Shown in pieces: positions 3,359 to 53,021 of a stretch of DNA of 64,000 nt (the stretch's first letter is position 1; every line of letters starts with the position of its first letter). The notes under the pieces were generated by a model. That model was not told the DNA's origin. It did no database searches and saw only the letters and a list, made by a program, of their open reading frames with translations. Origin of the DNA: Dictyostelium discoideum (Eukaryota); the NCBI GenBank assembly GCA_000004695.1, contig CM000152.2, positions 3,168,001 to 3,232,000 of the forward strand, in the 5' to 3' direction. The position numbers and the translations under genes are program-made.

Positions 3359-4577
3359 TTATTCACTTAAGAATTGAAGAGCAGTAGTTTTTTCAGCAAC
3401 TAATTCTTCAGTTGTTAGATTAATTAAATTTTTACTCAAATCATCCATTTGTAAACCTTGAACGATAGTGTATTTACCATTTGCACATTTAACTGGGAAA
3501 GAAAAGATAAGACCTTCTGGAACACCATAGGAACCATCGGAATAAACACCCATTGAAACGTATTCACCTTCAGCAGTACCAAGTACCCAATCATGCATAT
3601 GATCAGTGATTGCTTTTGCAGCGGAAGCGGCAGAAGATAATTTTCTGGCGGCAATAACTGCAGCACCTCTTTTTTGAACGGTTGAAATGAATTCACCTTG
3701 TAACCATTTTTCATCTTTGATTGCAGTACTGATTGGAGTTTTACCAGTGCTAAGATTAATATAACCACAACGATAATCTGGATATTGAGTTGATGAATGG
3801 TTGCCCCAGATAATTACATTGTGGACATCCTTGACATTTACACCTGCTTTCAAGGCTATTTGAGATTTGGCACGATTTTGATCGAGACGAGTGAGACATG
3901 TAAAGTTCTCCTTTGGAATGCCATTGGCTGATACTTGTGCAATGAGTGCATTGGTATTGGCTGGATTACCAACTACCAATACTTTAACATTCTTATTTGC
4001 ATGTTCGGCGAGTGCTTTACCTTGAACTTTGAAGATTGCTGCGTTTGCTTTCAAAAGATCAGCTCTTTCCATACCTTCTCTACGTGGCATAGCACCAACT
4101 AAAATTGCATAATGTACACCAGTGAATGCTTCTTTAACATCGGCAGTTATAACTGTATCAGCGATCAATGGATATGCACCATCTTGAATCTCCATTACAA
4201 TACCTTTCAATGAGTCTACCATTTGTGGAATATCTAAAAGATGTAATTTAATACGTTGATCTAAACCAAACATATCACCTTTACATACATTGAAAATTAA
4301 TGAATATGCAATTTGACCTGCTGCACCAGTAATTAATACATTAATAACTTCATTGCTCTATTGTATTTTATTTTATTTTTTTATTTTATTTTATTTTTTT
4401 TTAATTTATATAATAATATAAATAATATTATATTATTTAAATAATATAAAATAAAATATTAATATCGGAAATTAAATATCGGACATATAATTAAAATAAT
4501 AAATAAAATGAAATTAAATTAAATTAAAAAATAAAATGAAAAATAAAATAATTAAAATAAAATAAAGTATTTACCAT
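3359..4577 (-). CDS. Cytosolic-type NAD malate dehydrogenase. Exons: complement(4575..4577) [ATG only], complement(3359..4357). Intron 4358..4574 (GTAAAT...CAATAG).
   Basis: The translation of 4357..3359 begins [20 protein letters not shown] (a Rossmann GAAGQIAY motif) and continues with MDH1-like sequence to ...ALQFLSE. There is no in-frame ATG upstream of the in-frame TAG that doubles as the acceptor AG. An ATG followed immediately by GTAAAT lies 217 nt upstream. It gives M+SNEV..., which matches the canonical MSEPIRVLVTGAAGQ start of cytosolic MDH. The 3-nt first exon is inferred (confidence about 0.4). The main exon is secure. Confidence 0.8.
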
Positions 4578-5382
4578 TTTATATATTTAATTATATTATA
4601 TTATATTATTTTTTTTATTTGTTTGGAAAAATTATGAAGAAGAAAAAAAAAAAAAAATTGTGAACAACACATGACCTGTTTTTTTTTTTTATTTTTTTAT
4701 TTTTTTTTTTTCAATTATTTTTTTTTAATTTTAATTTAATTTTTATTTTATTGTGCGAACCCACCAGCCCCAATTTTACTTTGATATTTTGGAATAAAAA
4801 AAAAAAAAAAAAAAAAAAGGTTGGAAAAATGTGAATTCATTGAAGATCTTTGAACACAATTGCAAACGAAAAAAATTTTATTATAATCCAAAAAAAAATG
4901 ATTTTTCATTTTTTTGGAAATTATTTATTTAAAAAAAAAAAGATATTTTTATCTTTTTTTTATCTTTTTTTTAGAACTAATAAATAAATAAAAAGTTTAT
5001 TAACCAACGATAATAAAAACAAATTCTTTTTTTTTTTTTATTTTTTTTTTTTATTTATAAACTATTTATAATTAAAAAAAAAAATAAAAATAAAAATATC
5101 CACTAAAACATTTTCAAAAAATTTAAATAAATAAAAATAATAAATAAATAAATAAATAAATTATAAAATTTTTAGGTATATCAATTTTAAAATTATAGTT
5201 AGAACCAAAAAAAAAAAAAAAAAAAAAATGAAAATTTAGTCACAAAAAAAAAAAAAAATAAAAATAAAAAAAAAAAACCAACTGATTTCCTTCGTTCGTT
5301 TTTTTTTTTTTTTTTTTTGCTTTATTTTTTTTTTTTTATTAATTTTTTTTAAACAAAAACTATATTATTAATCTTAAAAAAT

Positions 5383-40816: not shown

Positions 40817-43777
40817 TTATTTATTTGATTTTGAAACTTTGGAATTGAAGCCAGCCATTTGTTGATATTTAGGTTTCTTTGGAACTTTTCTATCTCTATT
40901 TCTATTTTTAACATTTGCGGTTTCATAAAAGTGAACACCAACTTTTGAAGCATTGATTGCCTTTCTACGTTCTTTTTTACTTGGACCAGCTTCTGAATCT
41001 GATTCAACTTCTGGCATTTCATTATATTCTTTTCTTGTTTTTTTACCAGTTGGTTTTTGAGTTTCAGTTGTTGTTTTGTTTGTTGATTCTGAAACTTTAT
41101 TTTGAATTGATTCAAGCTTTTTAGTTAATGATGGTGCGGTTTTACTAATAACTGATTTCTTTTTAACAATTGGTTTTTCTTCTTGGATTGGTTCTTCATC
41201 TTGACCATCATCTTCTTGAGCGACATCTTTTTTGGTAACCTTCTTTTTAGCTGCAGCTGGTTGTTTCTTTGGTGGTTCTTCAACAACTGGTTCTACAACA
41301 GTGGCAGCTTTATTAGACTTTTTGGTTACTTTCTTTGGTGGCTCTTCAACAACTGGTTCAGTAATAACTGGTTGTGCAACAGCAGCGGAGGCTTTAGCAG
41401 ATTTCTTAACGACTTTCTTTGGTGGTTCTTCAACAACTGGTTCAGCAACAGCAGCAGTGACTTTGGTTGCAGATTTTTTAACGACTTTCTTTGGTGGCTC
41501 TTCAACAACTGGTTCAGCAACAGTGACTTTGGTTGCAGATTTTTTAACGACTTTCTTTGGTGGTTCTTCAACAACTGGTTCAGCAACAGTGGCGGCAGCT
41601 TTTGTTGATTTCTTAGCAGCAACTTTCTTTGGTGGTTCTTCAACAACTGGTTCAGTTGCAACAACTTTTTTATTTGATTTAACAGCAGCAACAGTTGGTT
41701 TTTCAACAATTGTTGGTTTAGTATCTTTGGAAACTGCTTTTTTATTGGTGGTGGTGGTAGTTGGAGTTACTACTTTTTCAACTTTTTCTTTTTTAACAGC
41801 AACTTGTTTAGTTGTTACTGGTGATTCAACATTTTTTACAGATTTTTTATTATTAATTGGTTCTTGTTTAACTTTAATATTTGATGATTTCTTTACATTT
41901 TTACCATTTGATTTAATTTGATCAACCTTTTCTTCTTCATCATAATCCAAATCACCATCTGCTAAATCATCATAATTTTCTTCACCATATAAAATATCCT
42001 CATCATCTAATTCCTCTTCTTCACCTGATAATTCTTCATCATCTTCATCGTCGTCATCTTCATTATTATCTTCTTCTTTTTGATATAAATCATCCCAATC
42101 TGGTTCTTCGTCAAATGGATCAACATATTCTTCACCATGAGCATCCTCTTCAGTGAATTCAGATTTAACTGGAATATTATTTAATTTTTGATTAACAACT
42201 AAATCACCATAAAGTTTTCTTCTTTCTTTTAATAATTTGTCAGTATCTTGATCAACTTCAGCTTCGTCAAGATATTGTTGTGGTTGAGTAGTGGTTGTAT
42301 TATCATTATCATTATTATCAGTTGATTCTAATTTAATTTTATTTAATTCATCTTCTTTTTCTTGTTCTGGAGTTAAATGTGGTGGTGCTTTAAAGTAAGG
42401 AATTTTACCTTTTTGATAATCATAAAGAACAAGTTTAGCACAAGCATTCATATTTGGTTGTCTTTTCTTTAAGAGTTTACCAGTTCTTTCGGCCATTTGA
42501 GTGAGGAAATCTTCATGATCTTTCCATTCGGCAATGTTATAAGTTTTAACGATATATTCTTTTTTAATACGATTTAAAACCTCTGGAATGAAAATGGTAG
42601 CATCTTCTAAATTTTCAACACGAACAACACCTTTTAATACGAGTTCAGCTTCTGAATCACCAGTGGCAGGAACGACACCTGGACAATCGATTAAATAGAT
42701 ACGTTTCATGAGGGTAATATATTGCCAAACTTTAGTTTCACCAGGAATTGGAGCAGCTTTACAAACTACTTTACTCTTGAGTGTATTGATGATTGAAGAT
42801 TTACCAACATTTGGATAACCAATGAAACCAACAGAGATTTGTTTCTTATCGGAATGTAATTTTGAGAATTGACGAAGTAATTGAATTAATGAACCTTTAC
42901 CGAATGGATTAGTGATTGAAGCGTGGAATGCCAATGTTGGATATTCCTTTGAGAGGATCTTAACCCAACGTGCGGTTGCCCAAGTTGGTACGAGATCACA
43001 TTTATTGAGAATGAAAATCAAATGTTTATGTTTTGAAGTCTTTTTCAATTGTTGTTCGACATGACGAGAACGAGTACCCATTGGATCACGAGCATCCAAA
43101 ACTTGTACCAATACATCGGAGGAATCGATAACTTTGTATAATTCACCCCAAATTCTCTTTGATGTACCTTTATCGAAAATATCCTTACGACGAGTTTCAA
43201 TTTCATCTTCATCAGGTTTAATATTTTTATCTTTAGTTTCATCGTATCCACTGGTGATTTCAGCTGCTTTGTTAATCATATTCTCATAATCGGTAACTGC
43301 TTTTAAATTTGGACGTTTACGTTGTTTCTTTGGTCCGAATGTGGTTTGAAATGATTCGGTGGTTAAAAGATTCATTTGAGTTTTCTTGGTACTGTCTTTC
43401 AATAAACCCAATGGTAACTTTGATGCATGTAACAATACCTTGTATGGATTGTTAACTTGTGATTCCATTTCTTCTCTAAATGTATTCAATTGATCTTGTC
43501 CAATAGCACGTGTATTACCAAACCATCTACGATCTGGTCTGATTCTAGTATCATGTGATGTATCCTTTGACATGAATGCACCACTAATTAATTTACCATC
43601 TCTTGTTCTAGTTGGTCTTTCACTATACATAGCCAACCTCTTAATGGTGGCACGATCTCTAAGGTTGGTTTTTGTCTTTGATACAATTCTATCTGGATTA
43701 TTTTGATTATTAGATTTATTAATTCTATTAGTAAAACTATTTGATTGATGGGTTCTTGGACCTCCTGGTTTAACCAT
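40817..43777 (-). CDS. Nucleolar GTP-binding protein 2 (GNL2/Nog2/Nug2) with a long Lys/Val/Pro-rich repetitive C-terminal extension. Single exon.
   Basis: The N-terminus [12 protein letters not shown] matches GNL2 RDRATIRRLNMY. The circularly permuted GTPase motifs are present (KCDLVP, then [12 protein letters not shown], then DCPGVV). The C-terminal 300 aa are about 21-aa tandem repeats of the type [21 protein letters not shown]. Confidence 0.9.
41250..41700. repeat. About 63-bp imperfect tandem repeats encoding the GNL2 C-terminal [19 protein letters not shown] units.
   Basis: About 7 units. The spurious antisense ORFs 41183..41921 arise from this. Confidence 0.85.
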
Positions 43778-49706: not shown

Positions 49707-50303
49707 TTGACTTTTTTTATTTAGGACTATTTTCATTACTCTAACATTACATCAAATTAATTTTTGTTATCTCATAAATGAAAAGATGTTTTTTCAATAT
49801 TAAAGGAAATGATAAATAAATATAACCAGGGTTTTCTTAAAATTTTTTTTCCAAATAAACTATTTTAATATTTATTTTAACTATTTTAAAAAACATTTTA
49901 TTTTCTTGAATGAGAATCTAGGATATTGGTATTAATAATATTAATAAAGAATTTATTATTGTACAACCATTTATAATATTATTTAATATTATTTAATTTT
50001 GTTTATTTATTTATTATTCTTAAAATATATTAAGACAATTAGCAATCGAGAGACTAATACAAGATGTTTTATTTAAATCTCAAAGAGGATTGATAGTTAT
50101 TATTTATTTTTATATGTATTGCATGAATTAATTAGGTTTCTTTGAACATTTTTAAAAACTTTTTATACTAAAATTTATAACTTCTTTGGTCTTAAAAATC
50201 TAAGAATATATTAAAACAGAATTGATATTAAAAAAATAAAAAAAAAGTTTTTTTGAATTGAGATTAAAAAAAGCAAGGGGCAGGTTAACTTTTCACCATG
50301 TAG

Positions 50304-51470
50304 TTAACCCTCGAAAGCTCAATTCAAAAAAAAAAAAAAAAAAATTATTGAAAATAAGAAAAAATCAATTAAGTTTTTTAACGGTTTTTTTTTAAAAAAC
50401 TAAAAATAAAAATAATAATTAGATTGTTTGGTAATTAAAATGAATATTTATTTGATTAAATTAATTAATTAATTTTTTTTTTATTAATTTTTTTCATTAT
50501 TTTTTCTTTGAAAAATCTGAAAAAAGTGGAAAAAATTGAAAAAGTTGAACTTGGAGCGTACTTTCTAAGGGTTTGGTGACCATTTAAATCTTCCAAAATA
50601 GTTTTACGAAATTCTCTATAGGATAGGCTATATTTGTTATAATTTTTGTGAACCACAAAGCTATTTACGATATAACATTCTATGATATACCAAAACAGTG
50701 TTAAATACCACTTTTTATTATGACCCGAATAAAATTCTTTTTTTATTCTTTGGTCTTGGCGGTCGCAGCACCCATGTTCATACGATAACTCACCAACACA
50801 ATAGAAAGTTTAATAGGTTCTGAATTCATTCTTTCCATTGAATTTGATTTATAATCCTCCTCTGTTGTTGGATCTTTAATTGTTTGAACCACCACATTCT
50901 ATAATAATAGTAAAACATCCTATTTCATTAATTAAACTATCTTCTTCTTCTTGAATTGAATGAGATAATAAATCAAAGTGACCTTCATCGTCTTCACCCT
51001 ATCAGAATTCATATTGTCAAAATTTGTTGAAATTTGTTGTTCAACTTTTTGTTTTTTTTTTTCCATTTCAAAATTTTTTTTATTAAATATATTGTTATTG
51101 AGGTGGAGGATAAGATATTACATTAAACTATATTTTTTTTTCTATTTTAATGAAATTAAAAATGAAAATAGCGCAACAGTACCACCACGCACACTGAATT
51201 TTTTACAATCATTCCAAAATATCATTAAAATATATAATGTAAATTTTTAGTAGAATTAAATAATATTATCATTGCAATCCAACAAAATGATCAATCACTT
51301 AAAAAAAAGTTTTTACTTTTTTTTTTTAAACGCAAAAATAAAAAAAAAAATAATAAAAAAAAAAAAAAAAATTCTGCACACGTCCATATAATTTGTTTTT
51401 ATTTATTTTTATTTTTTAAAAAAAAAAAACCTTTTTATTGATTTTTTGAATTGAGCTTTTGAGGGTTAAT
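50304..51470. mobile_element. Non-autonomous piggyBac-like DNA transposon (MITE-like, 1159 bp) with 24-bp terminal inverted repeats and TTAA flanks.
   Basis: Left end: TTAA|CCCTCGAAAGCTCAATTCAAAAAA (50304..50331). Right end reverse-complemented: TTAA|CCCTCAAAAGCTCAATTCAAAAAA (51470..51443). That is 23 of 24 identical positions. The CCCT... terminus and TTAA target-site duplication are the piggyBac superfamily signature (Trichoplusia ni piggyBac: TTAA|CCCTAGAAAGATA). The interior is A/T-rich and has no transposase-sized ORF. Confidence 0.6.
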
Positions 51471-51478
51471 TGCCCTAA

Positions 51479-51512
<34 letters not shown>

Positions 51513-51539
51513 TAATTATAAAAAAAAAACCTAACCAAT

Positions 51540-53021
51540 ATGAATTTTAAATCAGTTATTTTATTATTATCATTTTTGTATTTTATATCAATAGTTGGTT
51601 GTTTAAAAACTGAAGATATTAATTATTATCAAGATGGTGAAAAACTAGTGTTTCAAATAAATCCTAACTCTGGATTTAATGGTAACAATTTGGTAATTTC
51701 TGAATTTCCATCAATTGCATCAAAAGGAAATTTTAACCAATCAAAACAACTTTTAAATATGCCATTTTTTAATTTAGACAACGGTTCAGTTTCATACAAC
51801 TTAACACTCCTTAAATTGTAAGTTTTTTTTTTTTTTATTTTCAAAAATTATCAGAATATTTTTTATTTTTCGTTTTTCGTTTTTCGTTTTTTCTAAAATT
51901 AAAAAAAAAGATCACCAAATTCATTACCATATAAAGCATATTTATCACCTTTTATTGGTGATGGATATAATTATACACTCTATTTTAATTTATTTGAAAA
52001 AACAAATTATTGTTCAAAAGCAAATTTCAAGAATTCAGAAGAATATACTTATCAATCATGTATTAATGGTGGAAAAAATAATGATTCTTTTTCTCAAGCT
52101 GGTGATCTATTTGAAGCATCATATGATATTTCCCAAGTTGATTTAGTTAGAATTAACTATAAAGCAACTCAATTTAACTATGGTTGTTCTAGAAATACTT
52201 GGTTTAATATTTATTGTGATAAAAATCAAGATTTCAAATTACTTGGTATGGGTGCTAATTATTGTAATTACGAGGTTAATATTTTATCATCTCATGCTTG
52301 TCCAGTGTACTCATCTATTCCTTATAACAAAATTGGTGATAGTACCTATGAACTTAATGTTGGTCCACTCTATAATCATACTGCTCTATTTTACTATATC
52401 AATGGTTCTATGATTAAATTCGATCTTAACTCCACTTCCCAATACACACCATCTCCAACACCATCTGAGACACCATCTCTAACACCATCTGAGACACCAT
52501 CTCCAACACCATCTGAGACTCCATCCGAGACACCATCTGAGACACCATCTCCAACACCATCCGAGACACCATCTCCAACACCATCTGAGACTCCATCTCT
52601 TACACCATCTGAGACACCATCTCCAACACCATCTGAGACTCCATCTCTTACACCATCTGAGACTCCATCTCTTACACCATCTGAGACACCAACTCCAACA
52701 CCATCCGAGACACCATCTCCAACACCATCCGAGACACCATCTCTAACACCATCTGAGACTCCATCTCTTACACCAACCTCAACACCAGTACCAAGTCCAA
52801 AGGTTTATTGTAGATCCAATCGTTTTGGAATTACAATTAATAGTACTGAAACAGTTTCATGTAGAGGATTTGGAAAAACAAAATGTATAACTAAATTGGG
52901 AAGTGAGTGTAGCACTGATAATCTAGATGGAGAAATAGTTTGTACTTCTAAATCATTACAATGTTTTGGTACCAACATTCAATGCATTTCAGGTGATGTT
53001 TATTGCTCAATTGATTTCTAA
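51540..53021 (+). CDS. Secreted MRH (mannose-6-phosphate receptor homology)-like domain protein with a (TPSETPSP)n Ser/Thr/Pro stalk and a Cys-rich C-terminus. Exons: 51540..51817, 51911..53021.
   Basis: Exon 1 has a signal peptide ([21 protein letters not shown]) and ends ...LLKL with GTAAGT at 51818. Exon 2 (acceptor AAAAAAAG) has MRH-like Cys spacing: NYCSKANF...SCINGG...[16 protein letters not shown]...[18 protein letters not shown]. It then has about 14 copies of the 24-bp repeat encoding TPSETPSP/L. Phase 2 is consistent. The ORF-track ATG at 52248 is internal. Confidence 0.55.
52440..52795. repeat. 24-bp coding minisatellite (about 14 units, TPSETPSP/L).
   Basis: Lies within exon 2 of the MRH-domain gene. 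Confidence 0.9.

Follow-up and report, generated by a model that had tools for sequence, protein, structure and literature searches.

What is the 1.16-kb stretch of DNA, bounded by inverted repeats, that lies directly upstream of a gene start in the laboratory-strain genome of Dictyostelium discoideum, and how did it come to be there? It falls within a 64,000-nt stretch of contig CM000152.2, which was analysed as a whole (hereafter the window). An earlier note, made from the sequence, had proposed a piggyBac-like, TTAA-flanked, non-autonomous transposon, and our analysis indicates that the feature very probably belongs to a D. discoideum family of piggyBac-like DNA transposons, as a non-autonomous copy with an internal deletion.

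The limits of the element provide the first clues. A 24-mer search places one terminal inverted repeat (TIR), CCCTCGAAAGCTCAATTCAAAAAA, at 50308-50331 on the plus strand, corresponding to the 3' end of the element in transposase sense, and the other, CCCTCAAAAGCTCAATTCAAAAAA, at 51442-51465 on the minus strand, corresponding to the 5' end (the forward-strand letters there are TTTTTTGAATTGAGCTTTTGAGGG, of which CCCTCAAAAGCTCAATTCAAAAAA is the reverse complement). The two agree at 23/24 positions. Read directly from the sequence, a TTAA target-site duplication without strand adjoins each TIR on its outer side, at 50304-50307 on the left and at 51466-51469 on the right, exactly as the earlier note had described for its 24-bp repeats. 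The element measures 1158 bp alone and 1166 bp when both TTAAs are counted; the repeats had been given as 1159 bp apart, which is correct to 1 bp, while the end set at 51470 is one base beyond the true one at 51469. TTAA occurs at 1.7% of window positions, and the chance of two flanking TTAAs is ~3e-4. Low-complexity A/T inverted matches are plentiful locally (317 pairs in 2.2 kb), as would suit an inverted repeat that arose by chance in intergenic DNA rich in A and T. Against this, the 24-mer, with up to 3 mismatches allowed, is found at just these two sites in 64 kb and not once in 100 dinucleotide shuffles, the same termini recur at other loci around the same internal sequence, and the insertion is cleanly absent from other strains. 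The shuffles, the recurrence elsewhere and the shared interior refute a chance origin, which we regard as vanishingly improbable.

The sequence of the termini is that of a piggyBac element. According to a 2017 survey, the TIRs of this superfamily start with C[C/A/T][C/A/T] (PMC5381638), and the window termini read CCCTC[A/G]AAAGCTCAATTCAAAAAA at both ends, with the terminus variants ACCTCG and CCTCG in other copies of the family. The 5' ends across the family are CCCTCAAAAG, the exception being ACCTCGAAAG in the copy that we call L005, and the 3' ends are CC(C)TCGAAAG, resulting in a consistent A/G difference between 5' and 3' ends at position 6 of the TIR. Thus, the mismatch between the two window TIRs largely tracks end type and not decay. 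A 14-nt exact copy of a sub-terminal part of the TIR (TTTTTTGAATTGAG) is also present at 50249-50262, ~40 bp to the left of the insertion, followed by ...AAGGGG.AGGTTAAC (context 50245-50290). A near-identical version of it is kept in three isolates in which the insertion is absent, and the 14-nt copy is therefore not part of the 1158-bp element. Perhaps an older relative has decayed here to a solo end, whose partner did not turn up in the window.

The interior of the element identifies the gene that it once carried. On the minus strand we find the first ~60 and the last ~125 codons of a transposase, as two decayed pieces of one gene. From the 5' end inwards, a non-coding region upstream of the transposase ATG (51067-51441, minus strand) matches the L005 element, a fuller copy described below, from position 1 to ~437. 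It is followed by the 5' remnant of the transposase (50895-51066, minus strand), which has its ATG at 51066, covers approximately residues 1-60, and was recognised by translation and by its match to the N-termini of the predicted proteins P0011, P0012 and P0013; this acidic N-terminal piece reads MEKKKQKVEQQISTNFDNMNSD...EDDEGHFDLLSHSIQEEE. An internal deletion junction (...TATTATAGAATG/TGGTGGTTCA..., 50892-50894, minus strand) marks the place where ~1.08 kb is gone, equivalent to positions 617-1698 of the full-length copy. Beyond it, the 3' remnant (50465-50891, minus strand), identified by translation, Pfam, HMMER and BLASTN, corresponds to approximately residues 404-530 of P0012. It contains frameshifts and stops, retains the motif ...GCCDRQDQ...KKWYLTLFWYIIECYIVNSF..., includes ...YEHGCCDRQDQRIKKEFYSGHNKKWYLTLFWYIIECYIVNSFVVHK..., and in BLASTN matches positions 1699-2261 of L005. 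The remaining 3' non-coding part (50332-50464, minus strand) aligns with the region past the transposase stop codon in L005 and in two other copies, L001 and L006.

Only the C-terminal end of the DDE_Tnp_1_7 domain is kept in the window copy, and the match of the C-terminal remnant to the Pfam profile is correspondingly weak (profile positions 309-349, E=0.0024), its 17.7 bits falling below the gathering threshold of 22.4. An exhaustive HMMER search aligns the same remnant with residues 433-516 of P0012 at 95% identity (E=3.8e-48), and it is this identity that supports its assignment to the DDE_Tnp_1_7 family. A word-indexed protein search with the 91-aa remnant as query retrieved one partial gene model, P0011; the transposase itself was found by exhaustive HMMER. 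The proposed piggyBac affinity is therefore confirmed by the 95% identity of the interior with the end portions of a DDE_Tnp_1_7 transposase gene. Equally, the element holds no transposase-length reading frame, as had been claimed (the longest ORF within it is 90 aa), and the missing ~1.08 kb encoded residues ~61-403, including D249 and D328, that is, two of the three catalytic aspartates. Since the first two aspartates of the triad are deleted, the window copy is non-autonomous, in agreement with the original proposal.

The transposase to which these remnants belong is P0012 (KAM9971246.1), a 530-aa "hypothetical protein" from a wild D. discoideum assembly, which matches Pfam PF13843 DDE_Tnp_1_7 with E=8.1e-50. 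Its gene model contains a false intron that masks one frameshift, located in a poly-T run (L005:5435-5450); once the frameshift is repaired, the 556-aa conceptual protein covers DDE_Tnp_1_7 profile positions 2-349 of 349 (E=9.6e-51). P0012 is also similar to the piggyBat transposase structure 9c0f (E=4.7e-22) and to the T. ni piggyBac structure 6x67 (E=1e-12), and its D249, D328 and D438 align with D268, D346 and D447 of T. ni piggyBac (PDB 6x67), the catalytic DDD triad. Identity to animal piggyBac-derived proteins is 25-29%. A cysteine-rich C-terminal domain (zf-Tnp_2) is typical of active piggyBac members, without being strictly defining. Pfam finds no match to it in P0012. Beyond the stop codon of P0012 lie ~160 bp of AT-rich non-coding DNA, and the 3' end of the P0012 element comes too soon to accommodate such a domain; two unrelated piggyBac proteins, P0019 and P0021, give weak zf-Tnp_2 matches, just below the Pfam cut-off. 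The search for a DDE_Tnp_1_7 transposase able to mobilise the element, which the earlier note had called for, thus led by protein HMMER to a candidate in a wild strain. This near-full-length gene, the sole one seen, lies in L005, where it is split by the frameshift, has no 3' terminal repeat and has no C-terminal cysteine-rich domain, so that no demonstrably competent autonomous copy was found. Searching with P0012 minus its low-complexity N- and C-termini yielded two further diverged copies in D. cf. discoideum.

Six further copies of the family were identified in three assemblies, and TTAA adjoins every end still present in them. With the window included, this amounts to 11/11 preserved ends over seven copies, which is what had been anticipated for related insertions. 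The P0012 locus, L005 (assembly GCA_054859355.1), has a 2.27-kb element (L005:4569-~6835) that starts with TTAA followed by ACCTCGAAAGCTCAATT... and has lost its other terminus. L001, situated near the G6PD gene in assembly GCA_054883475.1, starts with TTAA followed by CCCTCAAAAG..., stops short of its other terminus, and is without an additional ~197 bp of the element 5' non-coding region. It is 98.3% identical to the window copy and has the identical deletion junction, TATTATAGAATG/TGGTGGTTCA; among the loci reached, these two copies share it. The presence of one junction at another locus indicates that the deleted derivative itself transposed, and therefore that a transposase was needed in trans. 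L006 has a different internal deletion and keeps the 3' terminus, followed by TTAA; at L006 2495-2713, the 5' non-coding region has its positions 154-378 inverted and upstream of the remaining element, an internal rearrangement. In D. cf. discoideum, L007 and L008 have both termini with TTAA on each side, and their flanks are identical, which indicates one insertion that was later duplicated inside a transposon-rich segment. These two roughly 80%-diverged copies (L007 1236-4293 and L008 4369-6736) lie beside reverse-transcriptase/tyrosine-recombinase (DIRS-like) genes. The 5' 24-mer is identical in L001, L007 and L008, each time directly after TTAA, and the 3' terminus CCTCGAAAGCTCAATTC of L006 and L007 (CCTCGAAACCTCAATTC in L008) is in each case followed by TTAA. 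Among the JGI metagenome contigs scanned, none matched TTAACCCTCRAAAGCTCAATTC.

The same copies expose a problem of annotation. The hypothetical-protein models KAM9971246.1 (L005 5001-6672), ACTFIT_002955, which is P0011 (L001 10001-11334), and KAM9963518.1 (L006 3001-3611) are transposon remnants, in which the "introns" skip frameshifts or join unrelated sequence.

The AX4-like assembly GCA_054883475.1 has a chromosome with the insertion and, over window positions 30799-53832, 99.8% identity to the window. As this independent assembly contains it too, the insertion is not an assembly artefact, and together with L001 it gives the AX4-like genome at least two copies of the family. To examine the site elsewhere, the orthologous region was taken from three other assemblies by way of the neighbouring GTP-binding-protein gene. 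The site is unoccupied in GCA_054859385.1, GCA_054859355.1 and GCA_054859205.1, with continuous flanks in 3/3, and this continuity places the insertion boundaries where they were first noted and sets the duplication at 4 bp. The occupied allele of the window reads ...CACCATGTAG TTAA [element] TTAA TTGCCCTAATTTTTT, and the empty allele of the wild isolates ...GAATTGAGATT.AGAAAAAGTAAGGGTGGTAGGTAACCTTTT..CCAC.T.G TTTA TTGC.CTAATTTTTT.... Flanking by TTAA is hence upheld by both window ends, by every preserved end of the six copies and by a single 4-bp empty site. The empty site itself had been expected to be a single TTAA: a single 4-bp site is indeed present in the three isolates, but it reads TTTA and not TTAA in all of them (L002 ~4735, L003 ~2880, L004 ~4790 on the reverse strand). 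Consequently, a canonical insertion requires either a prior T-to-A change in the recipient lineage or a non-canonical target. A T-to-A polymorphism that made a TTAA target in the recipient lineage would be the simplest account of a detail that is not fully explained. Non-canonical insertion into TTTA, with the TTAA overhangs then fixed by mismatch repair, is less likely than a simple target polymorphism.

These empty alleles also bear on the direction of change. The excision of piggyBac elements is precise and restores a single TTAA. Being scarless, it leaves an empty site that by itself cannot tell loss from gain, and the element could in principle be ancestral at this locus and excised in the wild isolates, rather than gained in the lineage of the laboratory strain; the flanking intergenic DNA, in which window and isolates differ by 7-11%, implies time enough for either. 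However, precise excision should have restored TTAA, and the empty alleles are TTTA in 3/3. Moreover, L003, from D. cf. discoideum, is ~89% identical to the window, compared with 92-93% for the other two isolates; as the most diverged it probably branches outside the rest, in which case loss would take two excisions. Loss would then demand two excisions plus parallel TTAA-to-TTTA changes, and gain one substitution plus one insertion. An ancestral element is on these grounds quite unlikely, and, as judged from the alleles themselves, the natural TTTA sites appear better explained as never occupied.

A gain in the laboratory lineage would have brought the element close to a gene. From the right TTAA to the ATG at 51540 the gap is 70 bp (51470-51539), the distance first reported, and the orthologous models of two other assemblies (L009 and L002) are annotated as beginning at this ATG. 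The label "MRH-domain" given to the downstream gene has no Pfam support: the two large exons contain neither an MRH nor another domain by Pfam. The gene (51540-53021) encodes a hydrophobic, signal-peptide-like N-terminus and a long PSETPS-type Ser/Thr/Pro repeat, and its orthologous models are 462 aa in the AX4-like assembly and 397 aa in a wild isolate. The element stands with its 5' end back-to-back with this gene. The interval between the insertion point and the ATG is 70 bp in the laboratory allele versus ~170-345 bp in the wild (L002 ~4384-4735, L003 ~2705-2880), and the shorter laboratory interval implies that ~125-290 bp of native upstream sequence was also lost next to the insertion. 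Given the 70-bp gap and this loss, the transposon makes up most of the proximal upstream DNA of the downstream gene. From its position, an effect of the element on the promoter of the downstream gene is plausible but unproven. That the insertion was co-opted as a functional part of this promoter in the laboratory strain is a stronger proposition. It draws on the 70 bp that separate insertion and ATG and on a laboratory allele which, without ~125-290 bp of native sequence, has a proximal upstream region made mostly of transposon; yet the gene is present without the insertion in three isolates, and in a genome with very short intergenic regions such proximity is expected by default. Co-option would accordingly seem unlikely.

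Other features of the window were also recorded. The segment 53082-56087, specific to the laboratory lineage, comprises ~3.0 kb that do not resemble the 0.37-0.53 kb occupying this place in the three wild isolates. Its ORFs, of 108, 115 and 204 aa, gave no Pfam match. A 24-nt, 96% complementary inverted repeat of hairpin type is located at 54550-54573/54581-54604. No terminal repeats, Pfam matches or second copy within the window were found for the segment. The minus-strand ORF at 40817-43777 encodes protein EAL67371.1/DDB_G0280289 of D. discoideum AX4 with no differences, and no tRNA genes were found in the window.

How does the family compare with known systems? It has in common with T. ni piggyBac and with piggyBat of Myotis lucifugus a TTAA duplication, TIRs beginning CCC and, in the family copy P0012, a DDE_Tnp_1_7 core with an aligned DDD triad; as in other elements of the piggyBac superfamily, internal-deletion derivatives are mobilised in trans. 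In contrast to T. ni piggyBac and piggyBat, its 24-nt termini show the position-6 A/G difference and its host is an amoebozoan, and unlike animal piggyBac, with the low transposase identity given above, its best copy is without zf-Tnp_2. The earlier description as MITE-like is loose. MITEs are usually under ~800 bp, have no coding remnant and reach high copy number. The element resembles piggyBac-derived MITEs in being non-autonomous, in its TIRs and TTAA flanks, and in having been amplified from a deleted progenitor (the junction is in two copies), but it differs from them in its length (1158 bp), in its recognisable transposase remnants and in the few copies, two among the loci reached, in which the junction is seen. 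It is a deletion derivative, then, rather than a typical MITE.

Another possibility is that the element belongs to thug-S, thug-T or DDT, which are reportedly Dictyostelium-specific classes of DNA transposons going back to Glöckner et al. 2001, and is piggyBac-like at its tips only. Like thug-S and thug-T, it is a small, low-copy, poorly characterised DNA element of the same genome. The sequence comparison covered thug-S: its two published derived miRNA sequences, AUUAAUUUCGGCAGCCAUAUU and UAUGGCUGCUGAAAUUAAUGUGG (PMC4894637), have no counterpart with 3 or fewer mismatches either across the window or among the family copies, the element thus differing from thug-S in having no miRNA hairpin sequences. 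Furthermore, the transposases of Tdd, DDT and thug are reviewed as having no significant similarity to known transposases (PMC5633606), whereas that of the present family is a DDE_Tnp_1_7 protein (E=8e-50), similar to a known superfamily. Membership of these classes is, in consequence, very improbable, and a piggyBac affinity throughout the element is preferred.

The standing of this superfamily in Dictyostelium requires some comment. In the 2017 survey, Amoebozoa were represented by Entamoeba invadens alone (PMC5381638), and it had been suggested from the window sequence that piggyBac elements may be uncatalogued in Dictyostelium. This suggestion is weakened by Table S1 of a 2026 preprint on D. 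giganteum (bioRxiv 10.64898/2026.03.01.708701), where "piggyBacA-1_DD" appears as an entry of Repbase; the table is titled as similarity to D. discoideum, and the suffix _DD is shared with Gypsy-1-I_DD. The entry implies that the superfamily is already catalogued for D. discoideum. The text of the same preprint has piggyBac as "not reported in D. discoideum", and this disagreement with its own table shows that the Repbase entry has so far been absent from the Dictyostelium literature. The chances that piggyBacA-1_DD is the family of the window element are somewhat better than even, and judged by its name it is probably this family or a close relative. The element itself is unremarkable within a well-understood superfamily, and Repbase probably already includes its family.

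In the mechanism that we propose, an autonomous copy would have supplied transposase in trans, the transposase would have bound both termini and excised the deleted derivative, and the derivative would have been pasted into a TTAA 70 bp upstream of the start codon during the ancestry of the laboratory strain. The central transposase region occurs in annotated proteins of two wild assemblies and in none of the AX4 and AX4-like proteomes, a comparison that depends on gene calling. Because no such protein is annotated in the AX4-like proteome, a weak negative for the same reason, the window copy is probably now immobile in the laboratory lineage. Overall, the results show the family to have been active at about the divergence of the sequenced strains. 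What is new here is a clean strain polymorphism at the insertion site, a shared deletion junction pointing to trans-mobilisation, a wild-strain transposase that is nearly intact and has no cysteine-rich domain, and the finding of transposon remnants annotated as host genes in new assemblies. An insertion of the laboratory strain is now linked to its family and to that nearly intact wild-strain transposase. In the literature searched, the DNA transposons of D. discoideum still stand apart from known superfamilies (PMC5633606), and a correction would be useful.

A more far-reaching scenario, which we consider speculative and rather unlikely, is that a piggyBac family whose transposase has no cysteine-rich domain continues to move in natural D. 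discoideum populations, that the frameshift in L005 is a homopolymer assembly error, and that the family creates presence/absence differences in promoters between the laboratory lineage and wild strains. If so, deletion derivatives would be mobilised, and at this locus most of the proximal upstream region of a gene for a secreted Ser/Thr/Pro-rich protein would have been replaced. An endogenous TTAA-specific transposon would then be usable as a genetic tool in Dictyostelium, and a competent transposase in wild strains, if one exists, might offer an endogenous means of insertional mutagenesis.
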